Shown here in pieces: positions 5,874 to 56,705 of a stretch of DNA of 64,000 bases. The notes beneath the pieces are model-generated. The model was given only the letters and a program-made list of their open reading frames with translations. It ran no database searches and had not been told where the DNA came from. The translations under genes were made by a program, and so were the position numbers. Numbering within the stretch: the stretch's first letter is position 1; the number at the start of each line of letters is the position of its first letter. The DNA lies in contig JACGUG010000004.1 in NCBI GenBank assembly GCA_024256285.1, positions 2,359 through 66,358 of the forward strand. Reading direction: 5' to 3'. Source of the DNA: an archaeon (GTDB taxonomy: Archaea; Thermoproteota; Nitrososphaeria; Nitrososphaerales; JACAEJ01).

Positions 5874-6005
5874 CGCTAGAGGCCGGAACATTTCGATTCA
5901 AATCGCACCAGACCCTAACCCTCGATCTCCTTTGAATCTACCGGTAAATTAGTGTTGAAATCCCACCCCCCGCACCAATTGCTGTAAAGGTCAAGGAAAG
6001 GTAAA

Positions 6006-6842: not shown

Positions 6843-7454
6843 TTGGAAACGACCAATTACGTTCTACCAAAACTGCCTTACGGATACAAGGAGTTGGAGC
6901 CACATATGTCCGAAGAACAGTTAAAGATACACCACCAAAAGCATCACCAATCATATGTCAATGGTGCAAATGCGATATTTGAGAATCTCAAAAAAGCACG
7001 AAGAGACGGCATCGATCTGGATGTTAAATCTACTTTAAAGGCGCTATCTTTCAACATAGGGGGCCATATCCTACACTCGTTATTCTGGGACAATTTGGCA
7101 CCGACCGGCAAAGGCGGTGGAAAGCCAGGCGGGGTTTTGGGCGATACCATCGAGAAGGAGTTTGGGAGTCTTGAAAGGTTCAAAAAGGAGTTCACACAAG
7201 CTGCTAGTAGCGTAGAAGGATCTGGATGGGCAGCACTAACTTTCCAAAAGCAGATTAATAGACCGATAATAATGCAGATAGAGAAGCACAACACCAACAT
7301 CTACCCCACGTTCGGAATTTTGATGGTTCTAGATGTCTTTGAGCATGCATACTACATCGATTACAAGAACGAAAGAGGCAAATTCACCGAAGCCTTCTGG
7401 AATATCGTTAACTGGGATGAAGTAAACAAAAGGCTTGAAAGATTGTCTAAGTGA
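6843..7454 (+). CDS. sod: Fe/Mn superoxide dismutase
   Basis: [30 protein letters not shown] and [13 protein letters not shown] are hallmark SOD motifs. The start codon is TTG. Confidence 0.9.
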
Positions 7455-25893: not shown

Positions 25894-27984
25894 TCACCTC
25901 CTTTTTATCTGGAACTTCTTAAGTGTAAGGGAGTTGGTAATGACGCTTACTGAGCTCATCGCCATAGCGATGGCTGCGAATACGGGACTTAACAGCCCGG
26001 AGGCGGCTACCGGTATGAAGCCTGTGTTATACGCAAAGGCCCAGAACAGGTTCTGCTTGATCTTGCTCATCGTCTTCTTGCTGAGCTTTATCGAAGCAAC
26101 TACGTCACGTAGATCATCCTTGATAAGCACTATTCCTCCGGTCTCAACGGCTACGTCTGTTCCGCTTCCAAGGGCGATCCCTATATCTGCTTGTGCGAGG
26201 GCTGGAGCATCGTTTATTCCATCCCCAACCATGGCCACAACCTTACCTTCTTTTTGGAGACCCTTGATTACCAAAGCTTTCTGGCCAGGGAGCACTTCGG
26301 AGATGACTTTGTCGATGCCCAGTTGTTGGGCGATTGCCTTGGCGGTTCTCCGGTTGTCACCGGTAAGCATAACCACCTCCAACCCCATTCCTTTCAGATC
26401 GTCTACGGCCTCTTTCGCGCTCTCCTTGATCGTATCGGCTACAGCGATCACACCAGCAAGGCTTCCGTTAAGGGCGAGGAGCGTTGCGGTCTTTCCTTCA
26501 TCCTCCAGTTTCTGAATCTTATCTTCTTGGGCTTCTATAGAGATGTTGTTGTCACGCATCAACTTCCTATTTCCAAGTAGAATCTCTGTATCGGAGTGAC
26601 TTGCCTTTACACCGTGACCTGGGACTGCTTCAAAGTAAGTTGGGTCAGGGACCTCAAGCCCCATTTCTTCTACTCTTCTAATTATGGCTTCTCCGAGGGG
26701 ATGCTCTGAACCCTTTTCTGAGATGGCTGCGAATCTTAGAACGTCTCTTTCAGTTGTGTTTGAAAGCGGCACTACATCTGTTACCGATGGTATGCCTTTT
26801 GTTAGGGTGCCAGTCTTGTCGAATACTATGGTCTGTACTTTGTAGGCTTTCTCCAGATACTCCCCCCCCTTTATCAGGATTCCACTCTCCGCACCCTTCC
26901 CCACTCCCACGATTATGGCTGCTGGTGTGGCAAGTCCCAATGCACATGGACACGCGATTATCAGGACCGCTACCAGAGCGGTGAAGCCTTGGATGAAGCT
27001 CCCAGCTAGAAAGAGCCATGTTGCAAAGGCCCCCAGAGCTATCAGGACTACTAAAGGCACGAAGTAGCCGGATACTCTGTCCGCCAAACGTTCTATCGGA
27101 GCTCGAGCTACAGACGCCTCCTCGACCAGCTTCACTATCTGTGCGAGTGTCGTGTCAGATCCAACCTTGGTGGCTCTTATCCTCAACATGCCGCTCTTGT
27201 TTATCGTCGCGCCTATCGCCTCATCGCCGACTTTCTTCTCAACTGGGATGCTTTCACCAGTGATCATCTTCTCATCCACACTCGAGTACCCATCTGTTAC
27301 AATACCGTCGACAGGGATCTTCTCGCCGGGTCTGACTACAACGATGTCTCCTACGCTCACCTCCTCGACAGGGACTTCGATCTCCTTTCCTTCTCGTATC
27401 ACTCTAGCCATCTTGGGCTGGAGACCGAGTAGCTTTCTTACCGCATCTGTCGCCCTTCTTTGCATTGCATGTTCAAGTAGCTTTCCTAGGAGTATGAAGC
27501 CTATGATTAGGGCAGCAGTTTCAAAGTATACAACTCTGGCATTGGGAGGTACCAAAGCTGGGAAGAAGGTAACGACAGTACTGTATCCCCATGCAGCGGA
27601 TGTTCCAATGGCTATCAGTGTATCCATATTGGCTGAACGAGATTTGATAGCGTGCAGAAAGCCCCTGTAGAACCTTTTTCCAGCGATGAATTGCACTGGA
27701 GTTGCAAGGAGAAAGAGCCAGAACTCTATCTTTACAAAGCTCGGAAGAAGATTAACGATGGCTTCTAGACCTATAAGGTCCGCCATGCTGAAGAGTAGCA
27801 GAGGGATCCCAAGGATGAAGCTCAGAGCAGTCATGCGCTTCAGATTTCTAACTTCGATCTCAGGTCTGAGGAAGGTCTGTAGGCAAGCATTGCTGCAGAA
27901 ATAGTATTCAGTTCCACGCACAGTGGCCCGTAGTGCATCGGGGCTTTCACGAACGAACATTCCGCAGATAGGGTCCTTGGGCAT
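25894..27984 (-). CDS. copA: Cu(I)-translocating P1B-type ATPase (CPC type) with an N-terminal TRASH/YHS metal-binding domain
   Basis: The N-terminus has DPICGMFV…[12 protein letters not shown]. Other motifs are TGES, the transmembrane CPC ([13 protein letters not shown]), DKTGTLT and GDGINDAP. Confidence 0.92.
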
Positions 27985-29122: not shown

Positions 29123-29749
29123 TTACGACTCTTCAGGAAACCTCTTCAGCCTCGCTGCATACCTCTCCTTGTAGGCTTCAAGGCAGGTATTACAGCAGAA
29201 GAACCGGGTCCCCTCCCCCACCCTAAGGGTATGTGGCCTCCCTGCGATCTCACCTCCACAGTAGTCGCAGGCCATCCTGATCTTCAGCTCAGGCTTCAAG
29301 AGGAGAGAAGGCCCTTCCTTCACCACCTTCGTAACTATCTGGGTTGTAGTCAGGGAGACTCCTGGCAGGGTGGTAACTTCCTCCTCGATGAAGCGCTGAA
29401 GATCCTCCAACCCTTCCACCATCAACTTCGCCACCAAGTTGCTCTCCCCCGCTGTAGTGAAGACATCGATCACCTCTTCCTTCAAGGCGAGAGACTCCTG
29501 CACTTCGCTTAGATCTTTGGCTTCAACTCGGAGATGCAGAATTGCCATGACTCCCTGTTCCACCTTGGTAAGGTCGAAGATCGGGGCGAAACCTTTGATG
29601 AAGCCCGCATCCTTCATCCGCCTGATCCTGGCCTCCACTGTAGGGGTCGATACTCCAACACGTTTAGCTACCTGCCTGTAGGAGAGCCTTCCATCCTCCA
29701 TCAGGGCCCTTAAGATGGCTATATCCAGACTGTCGAGGATTAGGGGCAT
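29123..29749 (-). CDS. Lrp/AsnC-family regulator with a C-terminal TRASH domain (CopR/CopT-like copper-responsive regulator)
   Basis: The N-terminal HTH reads LDSLDIAILRALMEDGRLSYRQVAKRVGVSTPTVEARIRRM. The C-terminus reads CDYCGGEI…FFCCNTCLEAYKERY. Confidence 0.8.
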   Translation of the reverse strand: MPLILDSLDIAILRALMEDGRLSYRQVAKRVGVSTPTVEARIRRMKDAGFIKGFAPIFDLTKVEQGVMAILHLRVEAKDLSEVQESLALKEEVIDVFTTAGESNLVAKLMVEGLEDLQRFIEEEVTTLPGVSLTTTQIVTKVVKEGPSLLLKPELKIRMACDYCGGEIAGRPHTLRVGEGTRFFCCNTCLEAYKERYAARLKRFPEES

Positions 29750-30161: not shown

Positions 30162-30176
30162 TATAACGCTGTTATA
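30162..30176. promoter_or_regulatory. TATAAC-GCT-GTTATA palindrome (perfect), orphan copy in a 700-bp non-coding gap
   Basis: It is an exact 6+3+6 inverted repeat, and no ORF of 60 aa or more lies nearby. Confidence 0.5.
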
Positions 30177-30446: not shown

Positions 30447-31334
30447 TCACATTCGCCCTATTTCTAGTATGCGTTCTTGATGTGTCAACACGTTCATTCT
30501 TCTTCCTCTAACAAAGCTGATTATAGTTGTTCCAGTCAGTCGGGCAACTTCGATACCAGAGTAGATGGCCGCAGAGATGGAGGCGACTATCGGGATCTTC
30601 ATACGTGCTGCTTTTAAGACTATGTCTCCTGTGAGTCGTCCGCTTGAAGCCAGAAAACATTCATCGAAGCCAATCTTTTTAAGGGCTACTGCACCTATTA
30701 CTTTGTCTACCGCGTTATGGCGCCCCACATCCTCTGCCCAGACCAAAAGATCGCCTCTATGGGAGTAGATGGCTGCTATGTGGACTCCTCCTGTTTTACG
30801 GTATACTCCATCGAGGGTATTGAGGCGTTTGACCGACTCCGCTATGATTTTTGCTTCGACCTTAGATCTGGATGCAGATCGGGGGAGGCTTAGTCTATCC
30901 ATAAGTTTAGAGAGAGGCCAGTAGTCGGCGGAGCCACATGCAGACACGATCAATCGGGCGAAGGGTTGTGAGACAGCAATCCGTTTTTCGGCATCGACAC
31001 TCGGTGTTAGCCTGACTTGACAATTTCCATCTTTATCTATTTGTATTCTTCGAATCTCCTCTAAAGATTTCAGTACCCCTTCTGAGAGGAGGTGGCCGAC
31101 AGCCAACTCTTTTAACTGGCCTGGAGAGCAAAGAATCGAGACATAGCGGGTTTTGTTCAGAAATATGTGTAGGGGCGTCTCCTCTGCCACAAAATCAATT
31201 TTTGTCTCTATTTTTTTAGACGAAAGATTTATCTGTGTAACTTGAACCTTCTTCAAATCGATCCTCCTCAGTTGGAGATAAGTTAAGAGTTCTCCCTCGG
31301 AAAGGTCTCCTATATCTGCTTGTGAACATGTCAA
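30447..31334 (-). CDS. fdhD: FdhD-family sulfurtransferase (formate dehydrogenase / Mo-bisPGD sulfuration accessory protein)
   Basis: GGVHIAAIY…EDVGRHNAVDKVIGA…SGRLTGDIVLKAARMKIPIVASISA is typical of FdhD. The start codon is TTG. Confidence 0.8.
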   Translation of the reverse strand: MTCSQADIGDLSEGELLTYLQLRRIDLKKVQVTQINLSSKKIETKIDFVAEETPLHIFLNKTRYVSILCSPGQLKELAVGHLLSEGVLKSLEEIRRIQIDKDGNCQVRLTPSVDAEKRIAVSQPFARLIVSACGSADYWPLSKLMDRLSLPRSASRSKVEAKIIAESVKRLNTLDGVYRKTGGVHIAAIYSHRGDLLVWAEDVGRHNAVDKVIGAVALKKIGFDECFLASSGRLTGDIVLKAARMKIPIVASISAAIYSGIEVARLTGTTIISFVRGRRMNVLTHQERILEIGRM

Positions 31335-31347
31335 CCTATCACAGTTT

Positions 31348-31362
31348 CATAACATTATTATA
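31348..31362. promoter_or_regulatory. Degenerate palindrome cATAAC-ATT-aTTATA (10/12), 14 nt upstream of the fdhD start
   Basis: It has the same 6+3+6 geometry as the perfect copies, with one mismatch per half-site. Confidence 0.3.
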
Positions 31363-31465: not shown

Positions 31466-32674
31466 TCATTTAATCGACCTTGAAATCTCCTCAACCGAAG
31501 AAACCAGCTTCTCGATCTCCTCTTGGGTGTTATAGAGATATGTGGAGGCTCGGACGGATCCCCTATGTCGCTTTAGCAAGATTTTCATCAAGGGAAGAGC
31601 GCAATGGGCCCCTGATCTGACCATGATGTTGGCAGAGATATCCAAAGCTAAGGCCACGTTGTGAGGGTTCAGGTCTTTGATGTTGAAGGAAACTATGCTG
31701 ATTCTTTTTTCCAAGTTTTCAGGACCGTAAACTTCGACTTGGGGGATATCTTTTAATCTATAGTGCATCTCCTTAGTTAGTTCCCTTTCATGTGTTTCTA
31801 TGTTCTTCATCCCGATCTTCCTCAGATAATCAGTTGCTGCACCTAATCCGATGACTTCAGCAATCGCAGGAGTTCCAGCTTCAAACCTTTTAGGAATTTC
31901 ATTCATTTTGTAGTAGTCTAAGCCGACATCCTCGATCGTTCCTCCACCGATAGCCATGGGTTCGATCTTTTCCAGCAGATCTTCATGGGAGTAAAGTATG
32001 CCGACTCCAGTTGGACCGAGCATCTTGTGACCTGAAAAGGCCAGGTAGTCACATCCGATTTTTTGAACATCTACTTTCAAATGGGGAACTGATTGGGCTG
32101 CGTCGATAAGCAACTGAGCGCCATGTTCATGGGCAATCTGGGCAACTTCTCTAACTGGCGTTATCACGCCTAAAACGTTTGAAACATGGGTCATTGCCAC
32201 CAAATCTGTTTTATCATCTATCGCTTTTTTGAAATCAGAAATATCGAAAAGCCCCTCCTTGTTCGGTCTAACGATCTCCACATCTACCCCATATCTTCGC
32301 TTCAGACGTAACCAGACTATGAAGTTAGAGTGGTGCTCGATAAGTGTAGTGACTATTTTTCGTCCCTTCTTCCAGTTTAGCCCGTTTGCGACAAGATTTA
32401 TGCCTTCGGTGGTGTTCTTGGTCGTTATTATTTCGGATTCAGACCTAGCATTAATAAATTCAGCAACCTTAGAGCGAGCCTCTTCGTACTCCTCGCTAGC
32501 TCTCTGAGAGAGTCTGTGGATGCCACGTTCAACATTAGCACGGTACTCATGGTAAAACTCCAACATCTTTTGGAGAACAGGCTCTGGGGTTAGGCTGGTT
32601 GCGGCATTGTCTAAGTAAATGATCCCAGAATTTAGCAAAGGGAAATCTTGCCTAATCCTCTGCACATCTAGCAA
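31466..32674 (-). CDS. Class II (SufS/CsdA-type) cysteine desulfurase
   Basis: The PLP lysine context is SGHKMLGPTGVGILY, and the catalytic Cys loop is RSGAHCA. Length is 402 aa, with a TTG start. Confidence 0.88.
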   Translation of the reverse strand: MLDVQRIRQDFPLLNSGIIYLDNAATSLTPEPVLQKMLEFYHEYRANVERGIHRLSQRASEEYEEARSKVAEFINARSESEIITTKNTTEGINLVANGLNWKKGRKIVTTLIEHHSNFIVWLRLKRRYGVDVEIVRPNKEGLFDISDFKKAIDDKTDLVAMTHVSNVLGVITPVREVAQIAHEHGAQLLIDAAQSVPHLKVDVQKIGCDYLAFSGHKMLGPTGVGILYSHEDLLEKIEPMAIGGGTIEDVGLDYYKMNEIPKRFEAGTPAIAEVIGLGAATDYLRKIGMKNIETHERELTKEMHYRLKDIPQVEVYGPENLEKRISIVSFNIKDLNPHNVALALDISANIMVRSGAHCALPLMKILLKRHRGSVRASTYLYNTQEEIEKLVSSVEEISRSIK

Positions 32675-32699: not shown

Positions 32700-32714
32700 T
32701 ATAACGCTGTTATT
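32700..32714. promoter_or_regulatory. TATAAC-GCT-GTTATt palindrome (11/12) between a TATA-like box and the cysteine desulfurase start
   Basis: The minus strand reads TTTATATAATAACAGCGTTATA, followed about 25 nt later by the TTG start with GGAGG in between. Confidence 0.5.
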
Positions 32715-32724
32715 ATATAAATAT

Positions 32725-33195
32725 CTACCAACACAATAACTCACTTCCTTTTGAATGAATCGCCCATATCAGGAGAAACGATACGATTCTTGCGACACTT
32801 GCTAATGGATGACCCTTAGCCTTGAGTTCAAGTGTGCAGAACCAACCGAAGGGAGTTCTGACAACCTTAAAGCCTTTTTCAATCAATCCTTTTTTCGTTA
32901 GCTCTAGTATCTCTACTGCGACCTCCGGTTTGCTCAGTTCTCCAAATAGATGAGTGAAGGGATGAAGAACCATAGTGCCTATCTTTAGTTGTTTGGCCAG
33001 CTTGGATATCTGTTCGGTGGCTTTCCTTGAGACCGATTCAGGATCGCGTTCATCTTGTTTCTCAACACTTGATAAAATGATCAATGCTTCCTTTACTTCC
33101 ATGGTCTTGGATTCGGGCTCTTCAACAATCCTAGACCTGCCCTTCTTGCTGATTGTAGAACGGAAATAGTCCACGTGAAGCATAAGCATCCTCAT
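32725..33195 (-). CDS. Free-standing archaeal ThrRS-editing-domain-like protein (tRNA-Thr_ED / DTD-like fold), paralog 1
   Basis: MRMLMLHVDYF…EALIILSSVEKQDERDPE…VLHPFTHLFGELSKPEVAVEIL…PFGWFCTLELKAKGHPLASVARIV resembles the N-terminal editing domain of archaeal ThrRS, as I recall it from Pyrococcus. No synthetase or anticodon-binding domain is attached. Confidence 0.7.
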   Translation of the reverse strand: MRMLMLHVDYFRSTISKKGRSRIVEEPESKTMEVKEALIILSSVEKQDERDPESVSRKATEQISKLAKQLKIGTMVLHPFTHLFGELSKPEVAVEILELTKKGLIEKGFKVVRTPFGWFCTLELKAKGHPLASVARIVSFLLIWAIHSKGSELLCW

Positions 33196-33234: not shown

Positions 33235-33699
33235 TCAATGTTTCAAGTATTCTGCTCTGACTTTTCTCTGACTCCTCCTTAGAATTTCTAACAGCGTTGA
33301 TGAAGATATATTCAGGCTTTTGGCTAGTTCTGCAAGAGTTTTCCTCTTTGGGTAGTCGAAATAGCCTGCTTCAAAAGCCGCCTGAATTATCTGCTCCTGT
33401 CTATGTGTCAATACTTCTTTGACCTTCGCTCTAGTGACCTTGTTTATTTCAACCTCCAATCCCCTGTCAGCAAACTTTTTCAATAGACGCTTGAACTGAT
33501 CGAGCCCTCCCAGGGTGAGAGTATATTCTACATAACCGTTCTTCTTGGTTCTAGCAGAGGCGAGAAAGCATTTTGACTCTGTGAATATTCTACAAGCGAG
33601 ACACTTTGAAGTCTTTATCCAGCCAAAAGCCCTGTCTCTTCCAACTCTGATGATATCGAATTCACAGATAAGCTTGTTTTGATTCATACTTTCTATCAC
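33235..33699 (-). CDS. HTH_10 (Bat/COG3413-like) DNA-binding protein
   Basis: The C-terminus reads LTHRQEQIIQAAFEAGYFDYPKRKTLAELAKSLNISSSTLLEILRRSQRKV. The N-terminal domain may be shortened, because the upstream 200 bp has only broken frames. Confidence 0.65.
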   Translation of the reverse strand: MIESMNQNKLICEFDIIRVGRDRAFGWIKTSKCLACRIFTESKCFLASARTKKNGYVEYTLTLGGLDQFKRLLKKFADRGLEVEINKVTRAKVKEVLTHRQEQIIQAAFEAGYFDYPKRKTLAELAKSLNISSSTLLEILRRSQRKVRAEYLKH

Positions 33700-33902: not shown

Positions 33903-34982
33903 TTAGACCATGGGAAGACCTAACCTTTCAGCGATTTTCCTGTATGTCTTCAATGCAGACTCTTCATCGTAAATCCCTGAACCAGGGGCTACCTGTAATA
34001 TAGATACTCCTCCCTTCAGCACGCTCACCCCCACTTCTTTACTATAATCAAAGGTCAGACCCATTGTGCCCTCTGCCTTTAAGGGGATTCCTTCAGCCCA
34101 AAGCTTGTTTCTTATACCTTCTATATCAAGGGCTTTTACTCTCGTGTCAACGATGAAGACGCCCCTTCCATCCCTCCCGCAGACCCCACTCACAGCCTTT
34201 TCGAGCACTTGAGAAGTCTCGATTCTAGCTTCCCCACATGTAGGGCAATTGACATTCCTTGATAACTCTACCACATCGAAGCAGAAGTTCTCAAGGTCCA
34301 CGAACATGAGGCGGTTTTTGAGGTAGGGTTCTCTGTTCAGCAGGATTCTAACTGCCTCGGAGACTTCGATGCTGGAAACTACATCGAGAAGAGGTGTAAA
34401 GACTCCCACGATTGCGCATCTTTCCATATCTTCATCTTTTAGACCTGAGTAAAAGCACTCAAGGCAAGCAGTTTCCCCTGGGATGAAGGTTGATACGTTT
34501 CCAAAGGTCTGGATAGCAGCCCCAAAGATGTAAGGTATCTTCAGCTTTACGGCTGCCCTATTCAAGATGTACCTGGCTCCTATAGTATCCAATCCATCGA
34601 TAACCAGATCTACTCCCTCTATCAGCTCTTCAACGTTGTGAGAGGTGATGGATGTTGCTATGGGGTCTACCTCTACACTGGAATTCAATATACTCAGCCT
34701 CTTTACAGCAGCTTCAACTTTTGGCATACCTATACAGGATTCGTCATAGAGATACTGCCTGTGGAGGTCTGACTTCGATACAACGTCTCTATCGATAACA
34801 CGAAGGTAACCTATGCCCATGGCTACCATCTTCAAGGCTATGGGAGAGCCAAGCCCCCCCGCTCCCACGAGGCATACCCTCCCTGCTCTGAGAAGTGACT
34901 GCCCTTCATACCCTATGTAATTCAGAGCGATCTGCCTTGAATACCTCTCCAACTCTTCATCTGTAAGCTCAGTTCTTCCCAT
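33903..34982 (-). CDS. ThiF/MoeB/UbaA-type E1-like adenylyltransferase with a C-terminal extension of about 100 aa
   Basis: RYSRQI and GAGGLGS form the nucleotide-binding motif. There are two CxxC pairs (CLEC, CPTC). The C-terminal extension has no rhodanese signature that I can see. Confidence 0.85.
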   Translation of the reverse strand: MGRTELTDEELERYSRQIALNYIGYEGQSLLRAGRVCLVGAGGLGSPIALKMVAMGIGYLRVIDRDVVSKSDLHRQYLYDESCIGMPKVEAAVKRLSILNSSVEVDPIATSITSHNVEELIEGVDLVIDGLDTIGARYILNRAAVKLKIPYIFGAAIQTFGNVSTFIPGETACLECFYSGLKDEDMERCAIVGVFTPLLDVVSSIEVSEAVRILLNREPYLKNRLMFVDLENFCFDVVELSRNVNCPTCGEARIETSQVLEKAVSGVCGRDGRGVFIVDTRVKALDIEGIRNKLWAEGIPLKAEGTMGLTFDYSKEVGVSVLKGGVSILQVAPGSGIYDEESALKTYRKIAERLGLPMV

Positions 34983-35141: not shown

Positions 35142-35474
35142 TTATGAATAATCTACTTCCAGTATTCTTTGAGCCTCTACATCATCTTCAAATAAGTATC
35201 TTGAGGGCATTACATCGACCCTTATGCCAAGATTTTCTAAGGTATCTCTTGTTGGTTGTCCGGTGGCGACTATTATCGCACTTTCTTTGAAAAGTTTTGC
35301 TACTTTATTTTTCTTTATACATCTTTGCAATAATCTGAACATGTTCAGATGATTGCGGCAGTAGAACTGGTGAATATCATGGCATCTACCTATAGTTCGA
35401 CAAATCATCGACGAATTCTTCGATAGGAACTTCGAAGGGGTTATGGGCTCATACATTAGAATACATGTCTCCAT
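35142..35474 (-). CDS. Hypothetical protein (111 aa from the ATG at 35474); the C-terminus is faintly HemD-like
   Basis: The tracked 181-aa ORF overlaps the better-supported plus-strand gene at 35529, so I prefer the internal ATG. …IVATGQPTRDTLENLGIRVDVMPSRY resembles a uroporphyrinogen-III synthase half-domain. The region is AT-rich. Confidence 0.3.
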   Translation of the reverse strand: METCILMYEPITPSKFLSKNSSMICRTIGRCHDIHQFYCRNHLNMFRLLQRCIKKNKVAKLFKESAIIVATGQPTRDTLENLGIRVDVMPSRYLFEDDVEAQRILEVDYS

Positions 35475-35492
35475 ATCCTTACATAAAACATA

Positions 35493-35507
35493 TATAACAA
35501 TGTTATA
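35493..35507. promoter_or_regulatory. TATAAC-AAT-GTTATA palindrome (perfect) centred in a 54-nt divergent intergenic region
   Basis: It lies 18 nt from the ATG at 35474 (minus strand) and 21 nt from the ATG at 35529 (plus strand). Confidence 0.5.
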
Positions 35508-35528
35508 ATTAAAATCTGGGGGATTACT

Positions 35529-35951
35529 ATGAAGATGTTGTTCATCCATTGTAATTACTTCTCCTACCTTACAACCCAAAAAACGAAAGTGGCTGAGGAC
35601 CTCCCAAATGGATGTAAAAGTTGCGCTTTTAAGGACGCATTGGTCGTTTTCGTAACCGCAGAGAAAGTCGACGAGAAAAATCCGCAAAAAGTAGTGGGTA
35701 TGGGGATTAAGGCGATCGTAGACGTTTCAAACAAGGTGGGCGCAAAGAACATCGTCCTCTTCCCCTTTGTGCACCTTTCAGACGAAATCAGTAGTGCAGA
35801 GACGGGGTCAGAAATCATTAGAAACATCTATGAAAACCTCAGTTCTCTTAACTATACAGTTGACAAAGCCCCCTTTGGATGGGAGAAGGTGTTCTCCATG
35901 ACCTCAAAGGGCCATCCGTTGGCAGAGCTTTCTAGGACGATTCGGCCATAG
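35529..35951 (+). CDS. Free-standing archaeal ThrRS-editing-domain-like protein, paralog 2
   Basis: MKMLFIHCNYF…ALVVFVTAEKVDEKNPQKV…VLFPFVHLSDEISSAETGSEII…APFGWEKVFSMTSKGHPLAELSRTIRP is closer to the canonical editing domain than paralog 1. Length is 140 aa, single domain. Confidence 0.75.
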   Translation: MKMLFIHCNYFSYLTTQKTKVAEDLPNGCKSCAFKDALVVFVTAEKVDEKNPQKVVGMGIKAIVDVSNKVGAKNIVLFPFVHLSDEISSAETGSEIIRNIYENLSSLNYTVDKAPFGWEKVFSMTSKGHPLAELSRTIRP

Positions 35952-36001: not shown

Positions 36002-36280
36002 TCATCCTCCGCTAACAGCTGGAATGATCGAAACCTCATCTTCATCTTTTAATACTGTATCAAAATAGTTGAGGAAGCGTACATCTTTACCATCTACGTA
36101 GATGTTGATGAACCTTCTTATATTTCCCGTTGCGTCTAAGAGTTTCGCCTTAAACCTGTCTCCCCATCTTGCAGTCAGCCCATCGATTACCTCCCTTAGC
36201 GTCGACGCCTCCACTTCCACCTCTTTTTCTCCAGTCAAGTTCACTAAAGCTCCATAAAGAACGGTTTTTACTTTGCTCAT
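36002..36280 (-). CDS. MoaD/ThiS-family ubiquitin-like sulfur carrier ending in Gly-Gly
   Basis: …INIYVDGKDVRFL…LKDEDEVSIIPAVSGG is followed directly by the stop. GAGGTG lies upstream of the ATG at 36280. An alternative GTG at 36295 would overlap the ThrC-like stop (GTGA). Confidence 0.75.
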   Translation of the reverse strand: MSKVKTVLYGALVNLTGEKEVEVEASTLREVIDGLTARWGDRFKAKLLDATGNIRRFINIYVDGKDVRFLNYFDTVLKDEDEVSIIPAVSGG

Positions 36281-36291
36281 TTTCACACCTC

Positions 36292-37536
36292 TCACTTTAC
36301 GATCTCTGCAAGTGACTCTAAAGTAGGCTCGATCTCAAAGGGTTTAGCTATACTGTTTAAAAGAGTCTCGGCTGCCTTGAACCCGTTACCAGTGACACAA
36401 CAGACAATCTCCTCATCTGGCGATATCTCTCCAAGCTTGACAAGTTTCTTTAAGACCGCTACTGTCACACCACCGGCAGGCTCGGCGAAGATCCCCTCTG
36501 TTTTCGCTAAAAGTTGGATTGCATCTAATATCTCAAAGTCCGTAACTGATTCGGCCACGCCGCCAGATTCACGTATAGCCTTTATGGCATAAAAACCGTC
36601 TCCCGGGTCTCCTATGGCCAAGCTCTTTGCTACAGTAGAGGGATGCTCGATGGGCTTCACGTCAAGGGCGTTGGCTTTAAAGGCCTTTACTATCGGAGCA
36701 CAACCGGAAGGCTGGGCACCCGTGATTCTAGTCTTTAAATCATCGACTAAATCGAGTCTTTGGAACTCTTTGAGGCCCCTCCAAATGGCACAGAGCAAGG
36801 CTCCACTGGCCATCGGCACTATCACACGGTCTGGAGCTTTCCATCCAAGTTGCTCACATATCTCAAAGGCCAAAGTTTTTGAACCCTCCACATAGTACGG
36901 CCGAATGTTTATGTTCGCAAAGGCCCAGTCGTATACCTCTGAAGCCTGAGCTGCGAGCCGGTTGGCATCATCGTAGGTTCCTTTAACGGCCACTATTCTA
37001 GCTCCATAGATCGTTGCCTGTAGGATTTTGTTGAGTTCGATGTCTGATGGAATGAAAACGTAGCAAGGCAATCCGGCTTTGGCTGCATGAGCCGCTGTAG
37101 CGGCAGCTAGATTGCCTGTTGAAGCACACCCGACAGCCTTGGCGCCAAATTCTAGAGCCTTAGATACGGCAACAGTAGCCGGTCTGTCTTTAAATGAGTA
37201 GGTTGGATTGACCGTATCGTCCTTGATATACAGTTTTCTTAATCCAAATATCTCCGCTAGCCTGTCACATCTGTGTAAAATTGTGTAGCCAGCACCTAGA
37301 TCCACGATTTTTGTTCTATTATTGACGGGTAGGAGTTCGAAGTATCGCCAGACCGTTTTAGGTCTATCTTGAAACGATTTCCTGTCAAGCTCTATGAGGT
37401 CATAGTTGTAGGTTACCTCAAGAGGCCCAAAACAGTCCTCACAAGTGTAAATCTTGGTTGGGAGGTGCTCTCTTCCACACTCTCTACACTTGAGCGATCT
37501 GATATATTCCAGTCTCTCGATACTTTCTATAACCAT
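36292..37536 (-). CDS. Threonine synthase-like PLP enzyme with an N-terminal Zn-ribbon
   Basis: CRECG…CEDCFGPLEVTY is followed by the PLP-lysine region PTYSFKDRPA and a TrpB-like fold II pattern. I prefer the ATG at 37536 over 37554. Confidence 0.8.
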   Translation of the reverse strand: MVIESIERLEYIRSLKCRECGREHLPTKIYTCEDCFGPLEVTYNYDLIELDRKSFQDRPKTVWRYFELLPVNNRTKIVDLGAGYTILHRCDRLAEIFGLRKLYIKDDTVNPTYSFKDRPATVAVSKALEFGAKAVGCASTGNLAAATAAHAAKAGLPCYVFIPSDIELNKILQATIYGARIVAVKGTYDDANRLAAQASEVYDWAFANINIRPYYVEGSKTLAFEICEQLGWKAPDRVIVPMASGALLCAIWRGLKEFQRLDLVDDLKTRITGAQPSGCAPIVKAFKANALDVKPIEHPSTVAKSLAIGDPGDGFYAIKAIRESGGVAESVTDFEILDAIQLLAKTEGIFAEPAGGVTVAVLKKLVKLGEISPDEEIVCCVTGNGFKAAETLLNSIAKPFEIEPTLESLAEIVK

Positions 37537-37542
37537 GTTATA
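37528..37542. promoter_or_regulatory. TATAAC-CAT-GTTATA palindrome (perfect) centred on the likely ThrC-like start codon
   Basis: The CAT spacer is the reverse complement of the ATG at 37534-37536. Confidence 0.45.
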
Positions 37543-37636
37543 ACTGATAATCACCTAATACATTAATATTTTTTTGATAATTCTATTCCAATTAGAATAA
37601 AATTGGGGGGACCCTTGCATCGTTAAATATATAAAC

Positions 37637-37651
37637 TATAACGGTGTTATA
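37637..37651. promoter_or_regulatory. TATAAC-GGT-GTTATA palindrome (perfect) just downstream of a TATA-like box and 39 nt upstream of tRNA-Cys
   Basis: AAATATATAAAC is followed by the palindrome, and the tRNA 5' end is at 37690. Confidence 0.5.
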
Positions 37652-37689: not shown

Positions 37690-37782
37690 GCCGGGGTGGC
37701 CGAGCGGTTAGGCGGCAGGCTGCAGACGGTTCTATGTGTAGAGACCTGCTCTACGCAGGTTCGAATCCTGCCCCCGGCTCCA
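37690..37782 (+). tRNA. tRNA-Cys (GCA) with an 18-nt intron at the canonical 37/38 position and an encoded CCA
   Basis: Manual fold gives: acceptor GCCGGGG/CCCCGGC; D arm GCC…GGC; anticodon stem GCAGG/CCTGC enclosing CTGCAG + 18-nt intron + A; 5-nt variable loop; T arm GCAGG-TTCGAAT-CCTGC; discriminator U followed by CCA. Confidence 0.85.
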
Positions 37783-37848
37783 AGATATTAAAAGACACTC
37801 GAATTGAGGCATCGAAAGTATAAAAAGTTCTATTAAATTGGTGATTTT

Positions 37849-38031
37849 ATGGCTGAAAAGGCTGTAGAGGAAACCTTTGCGGTGTTGTTTGCCCTGATCG
37901 ACTTAAGACAGATTTTTAGAGAGACCAAGCCCACTTATCGGCTTAGCACTGAACAGAAGGAGAAGATCAAGGAGATTCTTGGAGAAGTAAGACAGAGTTT
38001 GGATATTATTGAAAAGGAGCTGGTAACATGA
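37849..38031 (+). CDS. 60-aa predicted helical protein translationally coupled to SepCysS (ATGA overlap)
   Basis: MAEKAVEETFAVLFALIDLRQIFRETKPTYRLSTEQKEKIKEILGEVRQSLDIIEKELVT has amphipathic, heptad-like character. Its stop overlaps the SepCysS ATG. Confidence 0.45.
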   Translation: MAEKAVEETFAVLFALIDLRQIFRETKPTYRLSTEQKEKIKEILGEVRQSLDIIEKELVT

Positions 38032-39209
38032 GGGATATCGTTGGTAACATCGAGATCAGGGCAAGAGAGGAACTCTTCATAAACATTCATCCGATTCAAC
38101 CTGGGGGTAGGCTCACCCCAGAAGCCATGAAGGCTCTCATCGCTTACGGAGACGGCTATTCAACTTGTGATTGGTGCAGGAAGCCCTTCAGGCTCGACAA
38201 GATCCAAAGACCTCCGATAGACGAGTTCCATATTGAACTAGCAAAATTCTTGGGAATGGATCAGGCGAGGGTCGTCCCTGGTGCAAGGAGGGGCTTCCAA
38301 GCCGTCGTCTCTTCGATGATCGAAAAGGGAGACTCTGTGATCGTTTCCTCATTAGCACATTACACAGAATTCTTGGCTGTAGAAGCAGCTAGAGGTGTGG
38401 TTAAGGAAGTCCCCCTAAACGAGAATAAAGTAATCACTGGAGAAAACACAGCCAAAAAGATAGAGGAAGTGAAGAAAGAGACGGGAGCCCTCCCAAAACT
38501 GATCATGATGGACCATTTCGATTACATGCTGGGGAATGAGCATGACGTTCGTGGGGTTGCGCGAGTTGCGAAAGATTACGGTATCCCCTTTCTGTATAAC
38601 GGCGCCTACACAATAGGGGTGATGCCTGTAAATGGGAAAGAGATAGGGGCAGACTTTTTGGTGGGCTCAGGACACAAAAGTTTCGCCTCCCCCGCACCTT
38701 CTGGGATCTTGGCAACTACTGAAGAGTGGTCAGACAGAGTGTTTAGAACGACTCAGATGGTCGGCGATGTGACAAAAAGGAAATTTGGGATTAAAGAAGT
38801 CGAGATGATGGGTTGCACTTTGATGGGCGCCAATCTAATTGCAATGATGGCAAGTTTTCCTACTATAAAAGAGCGGGTTAAACATTGGGACGAAGAAGTC
38901 GAGAAGATCAACTATTTCGTCAAGGAATTTTTAAAGATCCAAGGAAATAGGGTTCTGAGTGAGGTGCCGAGGAAACACACTCTAACGAAGGTAGATACGA
39001 CAGGAAGCTTCGATAAGATTGCGCAAACCCACAAAAGGAGGGGTTTTTTCTTCAGTGATGAGTTAAAAAAGAGGAAGATCGTCGGCGAATTCGCAGGAGC
39101 CACAAAGGCTTGGAAGATGAACACTTATGGACTAACGTGGGATCAGATAAGATACTTGGCCCAAGCATTTCAAGACATTGCAAGAAGATATAACATAGAT
39201 GTAACATAA
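38028..39209 (+). CDS. pscS: O-phosphoseryl-tRNA(Cys):Cys-tRNA synthase (SepCysS)
   Basis: HPIQPGGRLTPEA…GDGYSTCDWC…RLDKIQRPPIDEFH…LAKFLGMD, the PLP site GSGHKSFASPAPSGIL, and GCTLMGANLIAMMASFP match my recollection of archaeal SepCysS sequences. Confidence 0.85.
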   Translation: MRDIVGNIEIRAREELFINIHPIQPGGRLTPEAMKALIAYGDGYSTCDWCRKPFRLDKIQRPPIDEFHIELAKFLGMDQARVVPGARRGFQAVVSSMIEKGDSVIVSSLAHYTEFLAVEAARGVVKEVPLNENKVITGENTAKKIEEVKKETGALPKLIMMDHFDYMLGNEHDVRGVARVAKDYGIPFLYNGAYTIGVMPVNGKEIGADFLVGSGHKSFASPAPSGILATTEEWSDRVFRTTQMVGDVTKRKFGIKEVEMMGCTLMGANLIAMMASFPTIKERVKHWDEEVEKINYFVKEFLKIQGNRVLSEVPRKHTLTKVDTTGSFDKIAQTHKRRGFFFSDELKKRKIVGEFAGATKAWKMNTYGLTWDQIRYLAQAFQDIARRYNIDVT

Positions 39210-39343
39210 AATCGATCGATTTCTAGGCACAATTTTGGATTGGTTTATAGCTATATCCCGAGTTTGCTCAGATGTAACTGTTTATTTTTAGAAGAATTTA
39301 AGAATCGGTATCAGACTAAAATCTGAGTTGGATAGCGATAAAA

Positions 39344-41533
39344 ATGAACCATCGAAACCATAATAAACATAGTCACCAAGACCATGCTCACCACATAGAA
39401 GAGTTCAAAAGAAGGCTTTGGCTATCCCTTATACTTACAATCCCCATTCTACTTCTTTCCGAAATGATCCAGATATGGTTTGGTTTTAGTCTAAAAATAC
39501 CATTTCAGAAAGAGGTTTTATTCCTTCTATCTCTAATTGTTTACCTTTACGGTGGGTGGCCCTTCTTAAAGGGAATAGTCCAAGAAGTAAAGACCCACCA
39601 GCCAGGGATGATGACCCTTATAGGCACAGCCATATCCGTGGCCTTCTTCTATTCTGCAGGAACAGTCTTCCTCATAGTTGGGAAGGATTTCTTCTGGGAA
39701 CTTGTAACTCTTATCGATGTAATGCTTCTTGGGCACTGGATAGAGGCTAAAAGTGTTCTTGGGGCTTCGAGGGCATTGGAAGAGCTCGTCAAGATAATGC
39801 CTACGACAGCCCACCTTGTCAAAAACGGTGAAATTGCAGATGTCCCAGTTTCACAGTTAAAGACTGACCAAGTTGTTCTTGTTCGTCCAGGAGAGAAGAT
39901 ACCTTCCGATGGCCTTGTAATAGAGGGGAAATCCTTCGTCAATGAAGCCCTTTTGACAGGAGAATCGAAACCCGTTCATAAAGAGACAGAAGATAAAGTG
40001 ATAGGTGGTGCAATAAACGGAGAAGGCGTTTTGAAGGTAAGAATAGAAAGGACAGGTGAAGAAACTTATCTGGCACAGGTAATAAAACTAGTAAGACAAG
40101 CTCAAGAAAGTAGGTCTAGAACTCAAGATCTGGCAAACAGAGCATCGGCCCTTCTTTTTTATGTTGCCCTTGGAGTGGGAATAGTAACCTACATAACATG
40201 GTTTCTTCTTTCTACACCCTTTTTTGCCCTTGAAAGATCCGTTACGGTTCTCGTTATAGCCTGCCCCCATGCCCTCGGTCTGGCAATACCTCTTGTTGTC
40301 GCCCTCTCCACTTCTATAACTGCAAAAAGTGGAATCCTCATCAGGGATAGAAGAGCCTTTGAGATGGTCAAGGATGTAAACGCTGTTGTCTTTGACAAGA
40401 CTGGGACGTTGACAGAAGGCAAGTTCGGGGTTAGTGATGTGGTATCCTTGACGCCTGAAGATGAACTTTTAAAACTCACTTCAAGTGTAGAACTGAACTC
40501 TGAGCATATAATAGCAAAGGCTATTGTGGAATATACAAAGGAAAGAAGTATAGCGATTCCTCAGGTGCAGGAATTCAAGGCGATACCCGGTAAGGGTGCC
40601 TATGGAAAAGTTGAAGACAAAGAAGTCTATGTAGGAAGTCCGAACCTTCTGAAAGAAATGAAGATAGAGATAGAAGATCAGAGGATAAAGGAACTTCAGG
40701 AACAGGGCAAAACGGTCGTTTTTACCATAGTTGATGGAAAACTTGTTGGTGCCTTCGCTCTTTCTGATAAGATAAGAAAGGAATCCTACGAAGCGGTCAG
40801 GAAATTAAAGGAGATAGGGTTAAAGGTCTACATGCTCACAGGGGATGCTGAGGAAGTCGCCCGATGGGTTGCGAAAGAACTCGGTATAGACGAATACTTT
40901 GCCCAAGTCTTGCCCGACGAGAAAGCAGAAAAAGTCAAGCTCTTGAAGGAAAAAGGCTATAAAGTTGCTATGGTCGGCGATGGCGTGAACGATGCTCCCG
41001 CCCTTGTTACGGCAGATGTTGGTATCGCCATAGGTGCTGGAACCGATGTAGCCATAGAAAGTGCAGATATAATCCTCGTGAAAAATGACCCTACGGACGT
41101 TTCAAAGGTTACTGACCTTTCACAGAAAACGTACTCGAAGATGGTTCAGAATCTGTGGTGGGCATCGGGTTATAATATCTTCGCTATACCCCTAGCAGCT
41201 GGTGTTTTGTATAATTTCGGAATAGTCGTAAGTCCTGCGGTGGGGGCCTTGTTTATGTCCTTGAGCACCGCTATAGTTGCCTTTAATAGCCAGACCTTGA
41301 GAAAGTACGAACCAAAGGTTGCAGAGTTTGTAGAGAAGAAGCATATGACCACAGACCCGGTTTGTGGGATGAAGGTAGAACCCGAAAAGGCTTACAGCAA
41401 GATGGAGTATGAGGGATATGTTATCTACTTCTGTTCAGAAGACTGTGAAGAGGAATTTAAGAAGAATCCTGAAAGATACCTATCAAAGATGAAAAAAGAA
41501 GAACCTAAAAAACATGAACATCGCCATCACTAA
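39344..41533 (+). CDS. copB: P1B-type copper ATPase of the CPH (CopB-like) type, with a His-rich N-terminus and a C-terminal TRASH/YHS domain plus His-rich tail
   Basis: The N-terminus reads MNHRNHNKHSHQDHAHH. Core motifs are the transmembrane ACPHALGLAIP, DKTGTLT and GDGVNDAP. The C-terminus has DPVCGMKV…YVIYFCSEDCEEEFKKNPERY…KHEHRHH. Confidence 0.9.
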   Translation: MNHRNHNKHSHQDHAHHIEEFKRRLWLSLILTIPILLLSEMIQIWFGFSLKIPFQKEVLFLLSLIVYLYGGWPFLKGIVQEVKTHQPGMMTLIGTAISVAFFYSAGTVFLIVGKDFFWELVTLIDVMLLGHWIEAKSVLGASRALEELVKIMPTTAHLVKNGEIADVPVSQLKTDQVVLVRPGEKIPSDGLVIEGKSFVNEALLTGESKPVHKETEDKVIGGAINGEGVLKVRIERTGEETYLAQVIKLVRQAQESRSRTQDLANRASALLFYVALGVGIVTYITWFLLSTPFFALERSVTVLVIACPHALGLAIPLVVALSTSITAKSGILIRDRRAFEMVKDVNAVVFDKTGTLTEGKFGVSDVVSLTPEDELLKLTSSVELNSEHIIAKAIVEYTKERSIAIPQVQEFKAIPGKGAYGKVEDKEVYVGSPNLLKEMKIEIEDQRIKELQEQGKTVVFTIVDGKLVGAFALSDKIRKESYEAVRKLKEIGLKVYMLTGDAEEVARWVAKELGIDEYFAQVLPDEKAEKVKLLKEKGYKVAMVGDGVNDAPALVTADVGIAIGAGTDVAIESADIILVKNDPTDVSKVTDLSQKTYSKMVQNLWWASGYNIFAIPLAAGVLYNFGIVVSPAVGALFMSLSTAIVAFNSQTLRKYEPKVAEFVEKKHMTTDPVCGMKVEPEKAYSKMEYEGYVIYFCSEDCEEEFKKNPERYLSKMKKEEPKKHEHRHH

Positions 41534-56405: not shown

Positions 56406-56705
56406 ATGACCATCACACACTATCTGTTATGGAGGCCGGAAGATAGAGTCCTTCACAGATCTGCTAAAGGAATATCACATAAATCTTTTAGTGGATGTAA
56501 GACGATTTCCAAAGAGCAAGAACCAAGGGTTCGACAGAGAAGGTTTGAAAGAAGAACTATCGAAGTATGGGATAACTTGCTTCATGGGTGAGGAGTTGGG
56601 GGTTTTAGGAAGCTAACCACAAGGACTTTTCAGAAATGGTCTGTCCAAATGATCTTTAGAGAAGATTTGATAAGGTGGGAGACGATTAAAAGATGGGAAT
56701 GCTGA
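56406..56705 (+). pseudogene. DUF488-family gene remnant with a start-frame problem, a homopolymer frameshift and a 3' truncation
   Basis: The body frame reads HTICYGGRKIESFTDLLKEYHINLLVDVRRFPKSKNQGFDREGLKEELSKYGITCFMGEELG. At a G5 run (56598-56602) the frame shifts to GFRKLTTRTFQKW…. The ATG at 56406 is one frame off the body. The conserved C-terminal CHR region is missing, and the end overlaps the rtcA start. Confidence 0.55.

Follow-up and report, generated by a model that had tools for sequence, protein, structure and literature searches.

A tRNA-Cys–SepCysSn–SepCysS gene cluster with an intron-containing tRNA-Cys gene in an archaeon

[quoted passage not shown] The unit was found, in the order tRNA-Cys, 60-aa ORF, SepCysS, in a 64-kb window (the whole stretch of 64,000 nt that was analysed). 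An earlier, sequence-only reading of this DNA had called the linkage of tRNA-Cys and SepCysS striking, and had proposed the ORF as a separate equivalent of the helical modules that bridge SepRS and SepCysS. In our account, to which we give a probability of about 0.8, the locus would serve the latter half of tRNA-dependent cysteine synthesis with a tRNA-Cys, SepCysS and a small protein, SepCysSn, that would dock on SepCysS; the enzyme would turn Sep-tRNA-Cys into Cys-tRNA-Cys on the tRNA encoded at the same locus. The cluster is a confirmed, ordinary example of an arrangement that has already been published, the tRNACys-SepCysSn-SepCysS-SepRS operon of Bathyarchaeota BA2 (Mukai et al. 2017, mBio, PMC5424206). 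A homologous helical module encoded by a separate gene is therefore present, as proposed, but it is not new. The coordinates of all features are collected in Table 1.

Table 1. Features of the tRNA-Cys–SepCysSn–SepCysS locus and of the adjoining region (positions in the window).
Feature	Position	Strand	Evidence or remark
Class-V aminotransferase, cysteine desulfurase type	31466..32674	-	Pfam Aminotran_5 6.7e-143
One-mismatch palindrome	32700-32714		25 nt upstream of class-V aminotransferase gene
Second tRNA-Thr-ED homologue, 156 aa	32725..33195	-	Pfam PF08915 3.4e-37
ThiF-family E1-like enzyme	33903..34982	-	Pfam ThiF 1.9e-67
Palindrome	35493-35507		21 nt upstream of 140-aa tRNA-Thr-ED gene
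Free-standing tRNA-Thr-ED homologue, 140 aa	35529..35951	+	Pfam PF08915 4.7e-42
ThiS/MoaD/SAMP-like sulfur carrier	36002..36295	-	Pfam ThiS 1.3e-14; NCBIfam SAMP1
ThrC-family PLP enzyme, N-terminal Zn ribbon, divergent	36292..37554	-	Pfam PALP 9e-78; NCBIfam threonine synthase
Palindrome TATAACGGTGTTATA, candidate promoter/operator	37637..37651	.	38 nt upstream of tRNA-Cys
tRNA-Cys(GCA) gene	37690..37782	+	ARAGORN -i; Rfam RF00005; alignment to intronless orthologues
tRNA-Cys exon 1	37690-37725		Anticodon 37722-37724; G37 at 37725
18-nt intron ACGGTTCTATGTGTAGAG	37726..37743	+	Canonical 37/38 site, after G37; ARAGORN with introns enabled
tRNA-Cys exon 2	37744-37782		
TATA-like TATAAAAAG, possible internal promoter	37819..37827	+	Centred ~26 nt before SepCysSn ATG; read from sequence
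Shine-Dalgarno-like GGTGA	37840..37844	+	4 nt before SepCysSn ATG
SepCysSn, 60-aa helix-loop-helix	37849..38031	+	Homologues, profile, AF2/Foldseek
Shine-Dalgarno AAGGAG for SepCysS	38014..38019	+	8 nt before ATG 38028; read from sequence
SepCysS (Sep-tRNA:Cys-tRNA synthase), 393 aa, core only	38028..39209	+	NCBIfam, PDB, motif positions
T5 run, possible archaeal terminator	39285..39289	+	76 nt past SepCysS stop; inference from sequence

The tRNA gene has the identity first proposed for it: it specifies tRNA-Cys(GCA), is interrupted by an intron of 18 nt, and includes U73 and the CCA end. ARAGORN with introns enabled, the Rfam tRNA model RF00005 (51 bits against a gathering score of 29, the anticodon loop containing an insertion of 21 nt), alignment to intronless orthologues and direct reading of the sequence all agree on this. 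The discriminator U73 lies at 37779 and the CCA at 37780-37782, and the GCA anticodon, G37, U73 and cloverleaf are all those of the SepRS/SepCysS substrate type. In its default mode, which cannot model introns, ARAGORN calls the gene tRNA-Ser(aga); this was dismissed as an artefact because about 50 related loci have, at the corresponding position, an intronless tRNA-Cys that aligns with the sequence to either side of the insertion. ARAGORN -i also reported a "tRNA-Gly" at 56571-57173, with an intron of 507 nt; this was rejected, as it has no Rfam tRNA match and overlaps an ORF of 346 aa.

Besides the window, an 18-nt intron at the same site, with a conserved 3' half, was found only in L002 and in L085, an extra intron-bearing example obtained by protein look-up. 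The intron is missing from all other tRNA-Cys-carrying loci compared, and two exact-pattern scans of metagenome contigs returned no further intron-bearing orthologues. The splicing endonuclease would excise it from the pre-tRNA-Cys. Folding of the L002 anticodon arm indicates that the 3' half of the intron (UGUAGAG) can pair with C32-A36, which would place the 3' splice site in a 3-nt bulge beside a helix of 4-5 bp (C32-A36 with intron nucleotides 12-16). In a strict bulge-helix-bulge, a helix of 4 bp separates two 3-nt bulges that each contain a splice site; in this fold the 5' splice site appears to be of a looser kind, in a relaxed 1x1 loop with a weak distal helix, the comparison covering three intron-bearing sequences. 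The minimum-free-energy fold of the full pre-tRNA is not a cloverleaf; the 3' half of the intron pairs in it with CUCUACGCA (variable loop and T-stem).

The 393-aa protein is a true SepCysS, as had been supposed. It scores 626 bits against NCBIfam NF006810 and 420 bits against the TIGR02539 equivalog (cutoff 365), and its closest structures are both SepCysS, from M. jannaschii (3WKR_A, 2e-97) and A. fulgidus (2E7I, 1e-87), the next-best PDB match being a cysteine desulfurase at 5.6e-12. Alignment to TIGR02539 starts at residue 3, in keeping with the earlier view that the enzyme has no N-terminal extension. The motifs CDWC (Cys47/Cys50), SGHK (Lys217) and MGCT (Cys263) all align with the M. jannaschii enzyme; Lys217 we take to be the PLP lysine, and the three cysteines the conserved active-site cysteines of SepCysS. 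An RRGFF motif occurs at 337, and the RGF and Gly positions with which M. jannaschii SepCysS contacts U73 appear to be kept here, under an inferred numbering offset. [quoted passage not shown]

Judged by profile and predicted fold, the 60-aa ORF is SepCysSn, a stand-alone homologue of the N-terminal domain (NTD) of SepCysE. The name SepCysSn denotes the peptide that stands alone, and SepCysSN the one fused to SepCysS (Mukai 2017, PMC5424206). The reading frame begins 66 nt past the tRNA-Cys gene, and its TGA overlaps the SepCysS ATG at 38028 by 4 nt (ATGA), an overlap that upholds the suggested translational coupling. Seventy close homologues (63-100% identity) and 80 cluster representatives give a family of about 150 in all. 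Differences by codon position (2286/1542/5201) show a third-position excess, and single-nucleotide codon changes are synonymous in 3304 cases vs 1218 non-synonymous. A profile HMM (A1) located the domain in the 81 related loci; about 24 have it in an ORF of its own directly 5' of SepCysS, and in about 50 it extends SepCysS in frame at the N-terminus. In essentially every one of these loci the domain is thus a neighbour or a part of SepCysS, and it has no other placement there. The view that the ORF is a real gene kept beside SepCysS is thus borne out by the homologues, the coding signature and the loci alike.

The relationship to SepCysE became visible with a broadened profile. Single-sequence searches with SepCysSn against Pfam, NCBIfam and the PDB gave no meaningful match, and the narrow, Bathyarchaeia-only profile A1 gave only chance matches in the PDB and did not reach SepCysE. 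The top PDB match of the broadened profile (A2) was residues 48-98 of MJ1481, the SepCysE of M. jannaschii (E=1e-6), so that the profile comparison with SepCysE proposed at the outset had a positive outcome. The AlphaFold2 model consists of two helices (residues 2-26 and 34-58; mean pLDDT 95.8), and a Foldseek search of the PDB with this model placed SepCysE NTD chains at ranks 1-5 (rmsd 1.0 A, 49 columns, TM 0.76); the very small size of the domain accounts for the weak E-values (0.3). As many proteins fold into helical hairpins, the empty single-sequence searches could also be read to mean that the ORF has a role outside cysteine synthesis, perhaps that of a small regulator or of an antitoxin-like hairpin, its adjacency to SepCysS being incidental. 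This we regard as highly improbable, as the in-frame fusions to SepCysS effectively refute it, and two further points argue against it, the resemblance to SepCysE and the fact that the loci examined have the domain only as a neighbour or a part of SepCysS.

What SepCysSn would do can be gauged from the parts of SepCysE, in which the NTD (residues 35-101) binds the SepCysS dimer, the N-helix (residues 1-24, coiled-coil) binds SepRS and the C-terminal domain (CTD, residues 111-213) binds the tRNA elbow (PMC5688128). SepCysSn has no more than about 4 residues before the region that aligns with the NTD, the SepRS-binding N-helix being missing, and its 60 residues end as soon as the second helix is complete, the tRNA-binding CTD being missing as well. 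Since SepCysSn aligns within the SepCysS-binding NTD only, homology does not support the bridging of SepRS and SepCysS that the sequence-only reading had envisaged. SepCysSn is best regarded as a putative SepCysS-docking or stabilising subunit and not as a complete SepRS-SepCysS bridge. Docking is predicted from the SepCysE-SepCysS complex (3WKR/5X6B, about 18% identity) and from the natural fusions, and by homology two copies of SepCysSn would pack into a small bundle of helices and sit on the SepCysS dimer at its two-fold axis.

The first helix is strictly conserved (TFxALFALxDLRQIFRETKPTY), more so than simple docking seems to need, and a further partner may therefore exist. Were this second partner SepRS, SepCysSn could be a complete adaptor that joins SepRS to SepCysS, a minimal transsulfursome like that of SepCysE. 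Mukai 2017 (PMC5424206) terms SepCysSn an "adapter peptide", and SepRS is encoded directly 3' of SepCysS in the BA2-type loci (L009-L013). We consider this unlikely, as the SepRS-binding N-helix of SepCysE has no counterpart in SepCysSn, as SepRS is unlinked to SepCysS here and in most of the loci compared, and as it has been suggested that Asgard SepCysE that is without the N-helix may form no SepRS complex (Mukai 2022). A docking subunit remains our preferred reading. The absence of SepRS from the window, reported earlier, was confirmed: tblastn with BA2 SepRS found no match at E<=1e-3 in the 64 kb, and Pfam scans of the long ORFs of the window found none. The SepRS gene is elsewhere in the genome, or missing altogether.

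How ordinary the cluster is can be seen from the 82 loci compared (81 related loci and the window). In 52 of these a tRNA-Cys gene lies <400 nt upstream of SepCysS on the same strand, often just 3-25 nt before the coding start. The linkage is therefore real but, being frequent and already published, not striking. The BA2 locus (L010) has the same gene order and the same stop/start overlap, its small protein is 76% identical (E=4e-29) and its SepCysS 80% identical, and the same palindrome lies upstream of tRNA-Cys in both. It differs in that tRNA-Cys is intronless in BA2, in that SepRS follows SepCysS, where a P-type ATPase gene comes next in the window, and in that the cluster here adjoins a divergent island of sulfur-relay and tRNA-Thr-ED genes. 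The SepCysSN of clade VII SepCysS of Methanomicrobiales and Methanosarcinales is a homologous domain with the motif (Q/E)KTFEALFALEDxRxxFRxxLP, and its loci often have a tRNA-Cys gene directly upstream, but the domain is covalently fused to SepCysS there and a separate polypeptide here. A close relative (L008), whose SepCysS is 83% identical, also has the fused form. SepCysE of class I methanogens (MJ1481; PDB 3WKR, 3WKS, 5X6B, 5X6C) shares the helix-turn-helix NTD, at about 18% identity, and has in addition the SepRS-binding N-helix and the CTD for the tRNA elbow, both missing here. Neighbourhoods of clade VII SepCysS resemble the present one in having tRNA-Cys, sulfur-metabolism genes and tRNA-Thr-ED (Mukai 2017, 2022).

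That the three genes form one transcription unit, as first proposed, is certain for the two ORFs and plausible for tRNA-Cys, with comparative evidence in its favour. The Shine-Dalgarno sequence of SepCysS is embedded in the last codons of SepCysSn (K-E-L), and among 19 split loci most keep (A/G)AGGAG with the (A/G)TGA overlap; together, overlap and embedded site couple the translation of the two ORFs, which would yield roughly equimolar SepCysSn and SepCysS. Before the SepCysSn start codon, G(G/A)TGAT is kept in relatives (alignment A3). The tRNA-Cys gene may be transcribed separately, given the TATA-like box 26 nt before SepCysSn; conserved synteny would then exist without co-transcription here. 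The 66-nt spacer holds TATAAAAAG at the usual archaeal TATA-to-start distance, and a similar element occurs in the spacers of L002 and L084 and is missing from L085. In many relatives, however, the spacer is just 3-25 nt, too short for a promoter of its own, and outside the TATA-like element the spacer shows no conservation, in contrast to the conserved palindrome that precedes tRNA-Cys. Nor does a T-run follow tRNA-Cys, except for TTTT directly before the SepCysSn ATG. Separate units thus appear rather less probable than a shared one, and the tRNA-Cys gene probably shares the upstream, palindrome-marked promoter with the two ORFs.

Taken by itself, the locus adds little, being a further case of a published type. 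It does put that half of tRNA-dependent cysteine synthesis which is independent of SepRS in a lineage near 'Ca. Methylarchaceae' HK01M, and the split gene here, taken with the fused forms in relatives, points to SepCysSn as a detachable subunit of SepCysS. The presence of the SepCysS-binding module alone sharpens the question of what the domain does without the SepRS- or tRNA-binding parts. Leads toward something new are limited to a shared palindrome and an apparent fusion of SepCysSn to the SepRS anticodon domain (SepCysSn::SepRS-ABD), which is rare and occurs elsewhere, on contigs of SRR33577143 and ERZ25074826; a search for homologues of this fusion returned only the query itself.

The palindrome, TATAAC-N3-GTTATA, marks the tRNA-Cys unit as well as neighbouring sulfur-relay and tRNA-Thr-ED genes. 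Within 8 kb there are two tRNA-Thr-ED genes and genes for a cysteine desulfurase, ThiF, ThiS-like, ThrC-like and FdhD proteins, the ThiS-like gene overlapping the ThrC-like gene by 4 nt. At ≤1 mismatch the window has 5 sites vs 0.12 expected. The site nearest to tRNA-Cys overlaps an AT-rich, TATA-like region (37625-37651), and a second (37528-37542) has at its centre the likely ATG of the ThrC-like gene, at 37536. The relatives that have the palindrome ahead of tRNA-Cys, at a distance of 9-38 nt, are L002, L003, L005, L007, L009-L012, L015, L017, L034 and L085. No mention of it was found in Mukai 2017 and 2022. We tentatively propose, as a possibility that we hold to be doubtful, that it acts as operator or promoter element for a regulon dedicated to sulfur, which includes the tRNA-Cys–SepCysSn–SepCysS unit. 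Other members may be the tRNA-Thr-ED homologues, the cysteine desulfurase and the ThiF/ThiS-like/ThrC-like thiocarboxylate module and, in relatives, ThiI-like and MetY-like genes. If the regulon were real, the co-regulated carrier and desulfurase genes would be candidates for the physiological route of sulfur delivery to SepCysS. DNA-binding-type proteins of the window are an HTH_10 protein (33235-33699) and an Lrp/TRASH protein (29123-29749). In 20 collected loci (tblastn), and on the further contig L085, a gene beside SepCysS specifies an HTH_3-like protein of 120-125 aa that has cysteines near its C-terminus. As its own gene is preceded by the palindrome (on L001, L003, L006 and L085), this protein is a candidate regulator.

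The 60-aa ORF that begins 66 nt past tRNA-Cys and whose TGA overlaps the ATG of SepCysS, as described in the sequence-only reading, is a real gene, for which 70 homologues (63–100% identity) were retrieved, nearly all of exactly 60 aa and from Bathyarchaeia-type metagenome bins, and an exhaustive profile search added 80 cluster representatives of similar size. The exact NCBI match is 'hypothetical protein H3Z50_02165 [archaeon]'. Among 19 orthologous nucleotide sequences, differences at codon positions 1, 2 and 3 numbered 2286, 1542 and 5201, single-nucleotide codon changes were synonymous in 3304 cases and non-synonymous in 1218, and only the annotated frame was open. Most of the 19 also conserve the (A/G)TGA stop–start overlap and an AAGGAG Shine-Dalgarno motif for SepCysS inside the last codons of the small ORF. 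The refuting conditions set earlier, on conservation beside SepCysS and on coding signal, are answered in favour of the ORF by the synonymous bias and the conserved overlap.

The identity of the downstream gene was also borne out. Its product scored 420 bits on the TIGR02539 equivalog (cutoff 365), and the nearest solved structures are SepCysS of M. jannaschii (2e-97) and A. fulgidus (1e-87), the next family being cysteine desulfurase (5.6e-12). Cys47, Cys50, Lys217 and Cys263 are present and, because the match begins at residue 3, the protein is a SepCysS core without N-terminal extension. The M. jannaschii residues contacting U73 (R-G-F and a Gly; numbering offset inferred) are conserved, matching U73 of the adjacent tRNA-Cys. 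For SepRS, noted earlier as absent from the window, neither tblastn with the enzyme of the 'Ca. Bathyarchaeota' archaeon BA2 nor Pfam scans of long ORFs gave a match there. SepRS directly follows SepCysS only in five BA2-type loci (L009–L013), and in the window the following gene encodes a YHS-domain P-type ATPase.

To place the small protein, all reading frames of 81 related loci (80 GTDB loci encoding SepCysS relatives, plus L001, a metagenome contig with a small-ORF homologue) were scanned using an HMM built from the 60-aa family. A separate ORF abuts SepCysS in about 24 loci, the window counted, the others belonging to Bathyarchaeia, Hadarchaeota, 'Ca. Methylarchaceae' HK01M, an Asgard bin and a few methanogen bins. 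The domain instead extends the N-terminus of SepCysS in frame in about 50 loci (Methanoregula, Methanospirillum, Methanosarcina, Methanoculleus, others, and one close relative, L008). Split and fused forms have the motif (E/Q)xTFxALFAL(T/E)DxRxIFRxxxP in common. At L008 (nt 5740–7173) the domain is fused in frame to a SepCysS 83% identical to that of the window, while the loci closest to it in sequence are split; on these sequences, changes from the split to the fused form therefore seem to have happened repeatedly, although this fusion may be an assembly or frameshift artefact.

A profile of close homologues only reached no solved structure, but one broadened with distant and fused members had MJ1481, the SepCysE of M. 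jannaschii, as its top PDB match (E = 1e-6, residues 48–98). The strongly helical character noted earlier agrees with the AlphaFold2 model, a helix-loop-helix (residues 2–26 and 34–58, pLDDT 95.8). Foldseek ranks 1–5 among 350,542 PDB chains were all SepCysE N-terminal-domain chains (rmsd 1.0 Å over 49 columns, TM 0.76), with a weak E-value of 0.3 because the domain is so small. In the tRNACys-SepCysSn-SepCysS-SepRS operon of BA2, SepCysS is 80% and the small protein 76% identical to those of the window. The proposal of a free-standing adaptor module was thus right in kind, as profile and fold relate the ORF to SepCysE and SepCysSn, but is not new, the arrangement having been published (Mukai 2017, PMC5424206). 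The naming had been reversed, SepCysSn being the stand-alone form and not the extension. Overall, the observation is confirmed and its interpretation is partly supported and already known; residual novelty lies in a palindrome common to the unit and the neighbouring sulfur island, and in a rare SepCysSn::SepRS-anticodon-domain fusion outside the window.

The suggested bridging of SepRS and SepCysS is not supported by homology. In SepCysE, the N-helix (residues 1–24) binds SepRS, the NTD (35–101) docks in dimeric form at the two-fold axis of dimeric SepCysS, and the CTD (111–213) holds the tRNA elbow (PMC5688128). The 60-aa protein matches the NTD only, with about four residues before the aligned segment and none after the second helix. 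By homology it would dock as a dimer on SepCysS, and would neither bridge to SepRS nor hold tRNA. The same limit was suggested for Asgard SepCysE without N-helix (Mukai et al. 2022). Translational coupling fits SepCysSn as a stoichiometric subunit.

Linkage to tRNA-Cys, previously called striking, is real but common. In 52 of the 82 loci (81 related plus the window), tRNA-Cys is encoded on the same strand no more than 400 nt ahead of where SepCysSn or SepCysSN (fused form) coding begins, and in many methanogens the gap is only 3–25 nt; linkage is a family trait and not peculiar to the window. The palindrome TATAAC-N3-GTTATA upstream of tRNA-Cys recurs in most Bathyarchaeia and Hadarchaeota relatives (distances 9–38 nt), and the tRNA-to-ORF spacer is otherwise unconserved, which makes a promoter ahead of the tRNA the likelier arrangement. 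An internal promoter may instead lie between tRNA-Cys and the small ORF, as the window, L002 (HK01M) and related locus L084 have in common a TATA-like box, TATAAAAAG (nt 37,819–27), about 26 nt before the ATG.

The tRNA-Cys(GCA) with its 18-nt intron, U73 and encoded CCA was confirmed by ARAGORN with introns enabled, Rfam and direct reading. A 51-bit match to the Rfam tRNA model (gathering score 29), in which the anticodon loop holds 21 inserted nucleotides, was the sole Rfam match within 64 kb. Default, intron-blind ARAGORN labelled the gene tRNA-Ser(aga), an artefact, because about 50 related loci carry an intronless tRNA-Cys at the same position that aligns on both sides of the insertion. 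Short introns at position 37/38 are commonplace in these lineages of archaea. Only the window, L002 (SepCysS 93% identical) and the ENA contig L085 (SepCysSn 80% identical) had an 18-nt intron at this site, and two exact-match metagenome scans gave no further examples. The 3' half (UGUAGAG) is conserved and the 5' half variable; in the predicted fold the former can pair with C32–A36, so that a 3-nt bulge holds the 3' splice site and a relaxed loop the 5' site. In the anticodon stem of L085 a G-C pair is replaced by A-U, a compensatory change, and L085 has no encoded CCA. The 3' half UGUGUAGAG (nt 37,735–37,743) is also complementary to CUCUACGCA (nt 37,749–37,757) in the variable loop and T-stem, so that the minimum-free-energy fold of the pre-tRNA (−43.9 kcal/mol, z = −2.1) is an alternative to the cloverleaf, predicted for L002 as well.

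Features of the SepCysS locus, its surroundings and related contigs (window positions unless a contig is named)
Feature	Location (nt)	Strand	Remarks
Two YHS-domain P-type (heavy-metal type) ATPases	25894–27984; 39344–41533	−; +	flank island
Lrp/AsnC regulator, TRASH metal-binding domain	29123–29749	−
Palindrome	30162–30176; 32700–32714; 35493–35507; 37528–37542; 37637–37651		second copy, 1 mismatch
Palindrome-like copy	31348–31362		2 mismatches
FdhD	30447–31334
Class-V aminotransferase	31466–32674
tRNA-Thr-ED homologue, second	32725–33195	−	free-standing
HTH_10 regulator	33235–33699
ThiF E1	33903–34982	−
tRNA-Thr-ED homologue (archaeal ThrRS editing domain)	35529–35951	+	free-standing
ThiS/SAMP-like carrier	36002–36295	−	overlaps ThrC-family gene by 4 nt
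ThrC-family PLP enzyme, Zn ribbon	36292–37554	−
tRNA-Cys(GCA)	37690–37782		ARAGORN, introns enabled
tRNA-Cys intron, 18 nt	37726–37743		after G37; ARAGORN, introns enabled
60-aa ORF	37849–38031
SepCysS, 393 aa	38028–39209		NCBIfam NF006810, 626 bits
HTH_3-like protein gene	L001 9864–10238; L003 ~2724–3074; L085 2533–2895		~17 further loci by tblastn
SepCysSn::SepRS fusions	L082 131–997; L083 65–472		P0093, 288 aa; P0138, 135 aa

The sulfur island on the divergent side of SepCysS is of the neighbourhood type described by Mukai. Its ThrC-like/ThiS-like/ThiF trio resembles the MetM/MetO/MoeZ thiocarboxylate route to homocysteine, MetM often being misannotated as threonine synthase (10.1101/2024.10.14.618325). 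With P-type ATPases flanking the island and the Lrp/TRASH gene inside it, metal-homeostasis genes are interleaved with sulfur genes. The two tRNA-Thr-ED paralogues are 31% identical. A 181-aa ORF (nt 35,142–35,687, − strand) has no family match and is probably spurious, as it overlaps the + strand tRNA-Thr-ED gene.

Five palindromes with at most one mismatch occur in the window (0.12 expected), all within the 7.5-kb sulfur/SepCysS island. The probable ATG (nt 37,536) of the ThrC-like gene lies at the centre of one copy. The element is also found in related loci L001–L020, L034, L084 and L085, where it precedes cysteine desulfurase and tRNA-Thr-ED genes by 10–33 nt, the distance reaching about 55 nt at some tRNA-Thr-ED genes. 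In these relatives it also stands ahead of ThiF, ThiI-like, MetY-like and DtxR-type genes, as well as of the tRNA-Cys unit. The methanogen loci collected did not contain it, and no mention was found in the SepCysS papers searched. On this distribution it is a candidate sulfur-regulon operator or symmetric promoter element. A gene for an HTH_3-like protein of 120–125 aa, with Cys motifs at its C-terminus, neighbours SepCysS in 20 collected loci (tblastn), some of them from methanogens, and is also present on an additional contig, L085; no homologue is encoded in the window. The palindrome precedes this gene on L001, L003, L006 and L085, which makes its product a candidate for a regulator that controls both the cluster and its own gene.

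Outside the window, only two short single-sample contigs, L082 and L083, encode a fusion that joins a SepCysSn-like domain, at its N-terminus, to the anticodon-binding region from the C-terminal part of SepRS (2DU5 residues 331–533, E = 2.8e-28). A homologue search gave no further cases, and no mention was found in Mukai 2017 or 2022. On L082 SepCysS starts 34 nt after the fusion, which therefore sits in the SepCysSn slot. It looks like an analogue of SepCysE in which a binder of the tRNA-Cys anticodon has been used as the building block.
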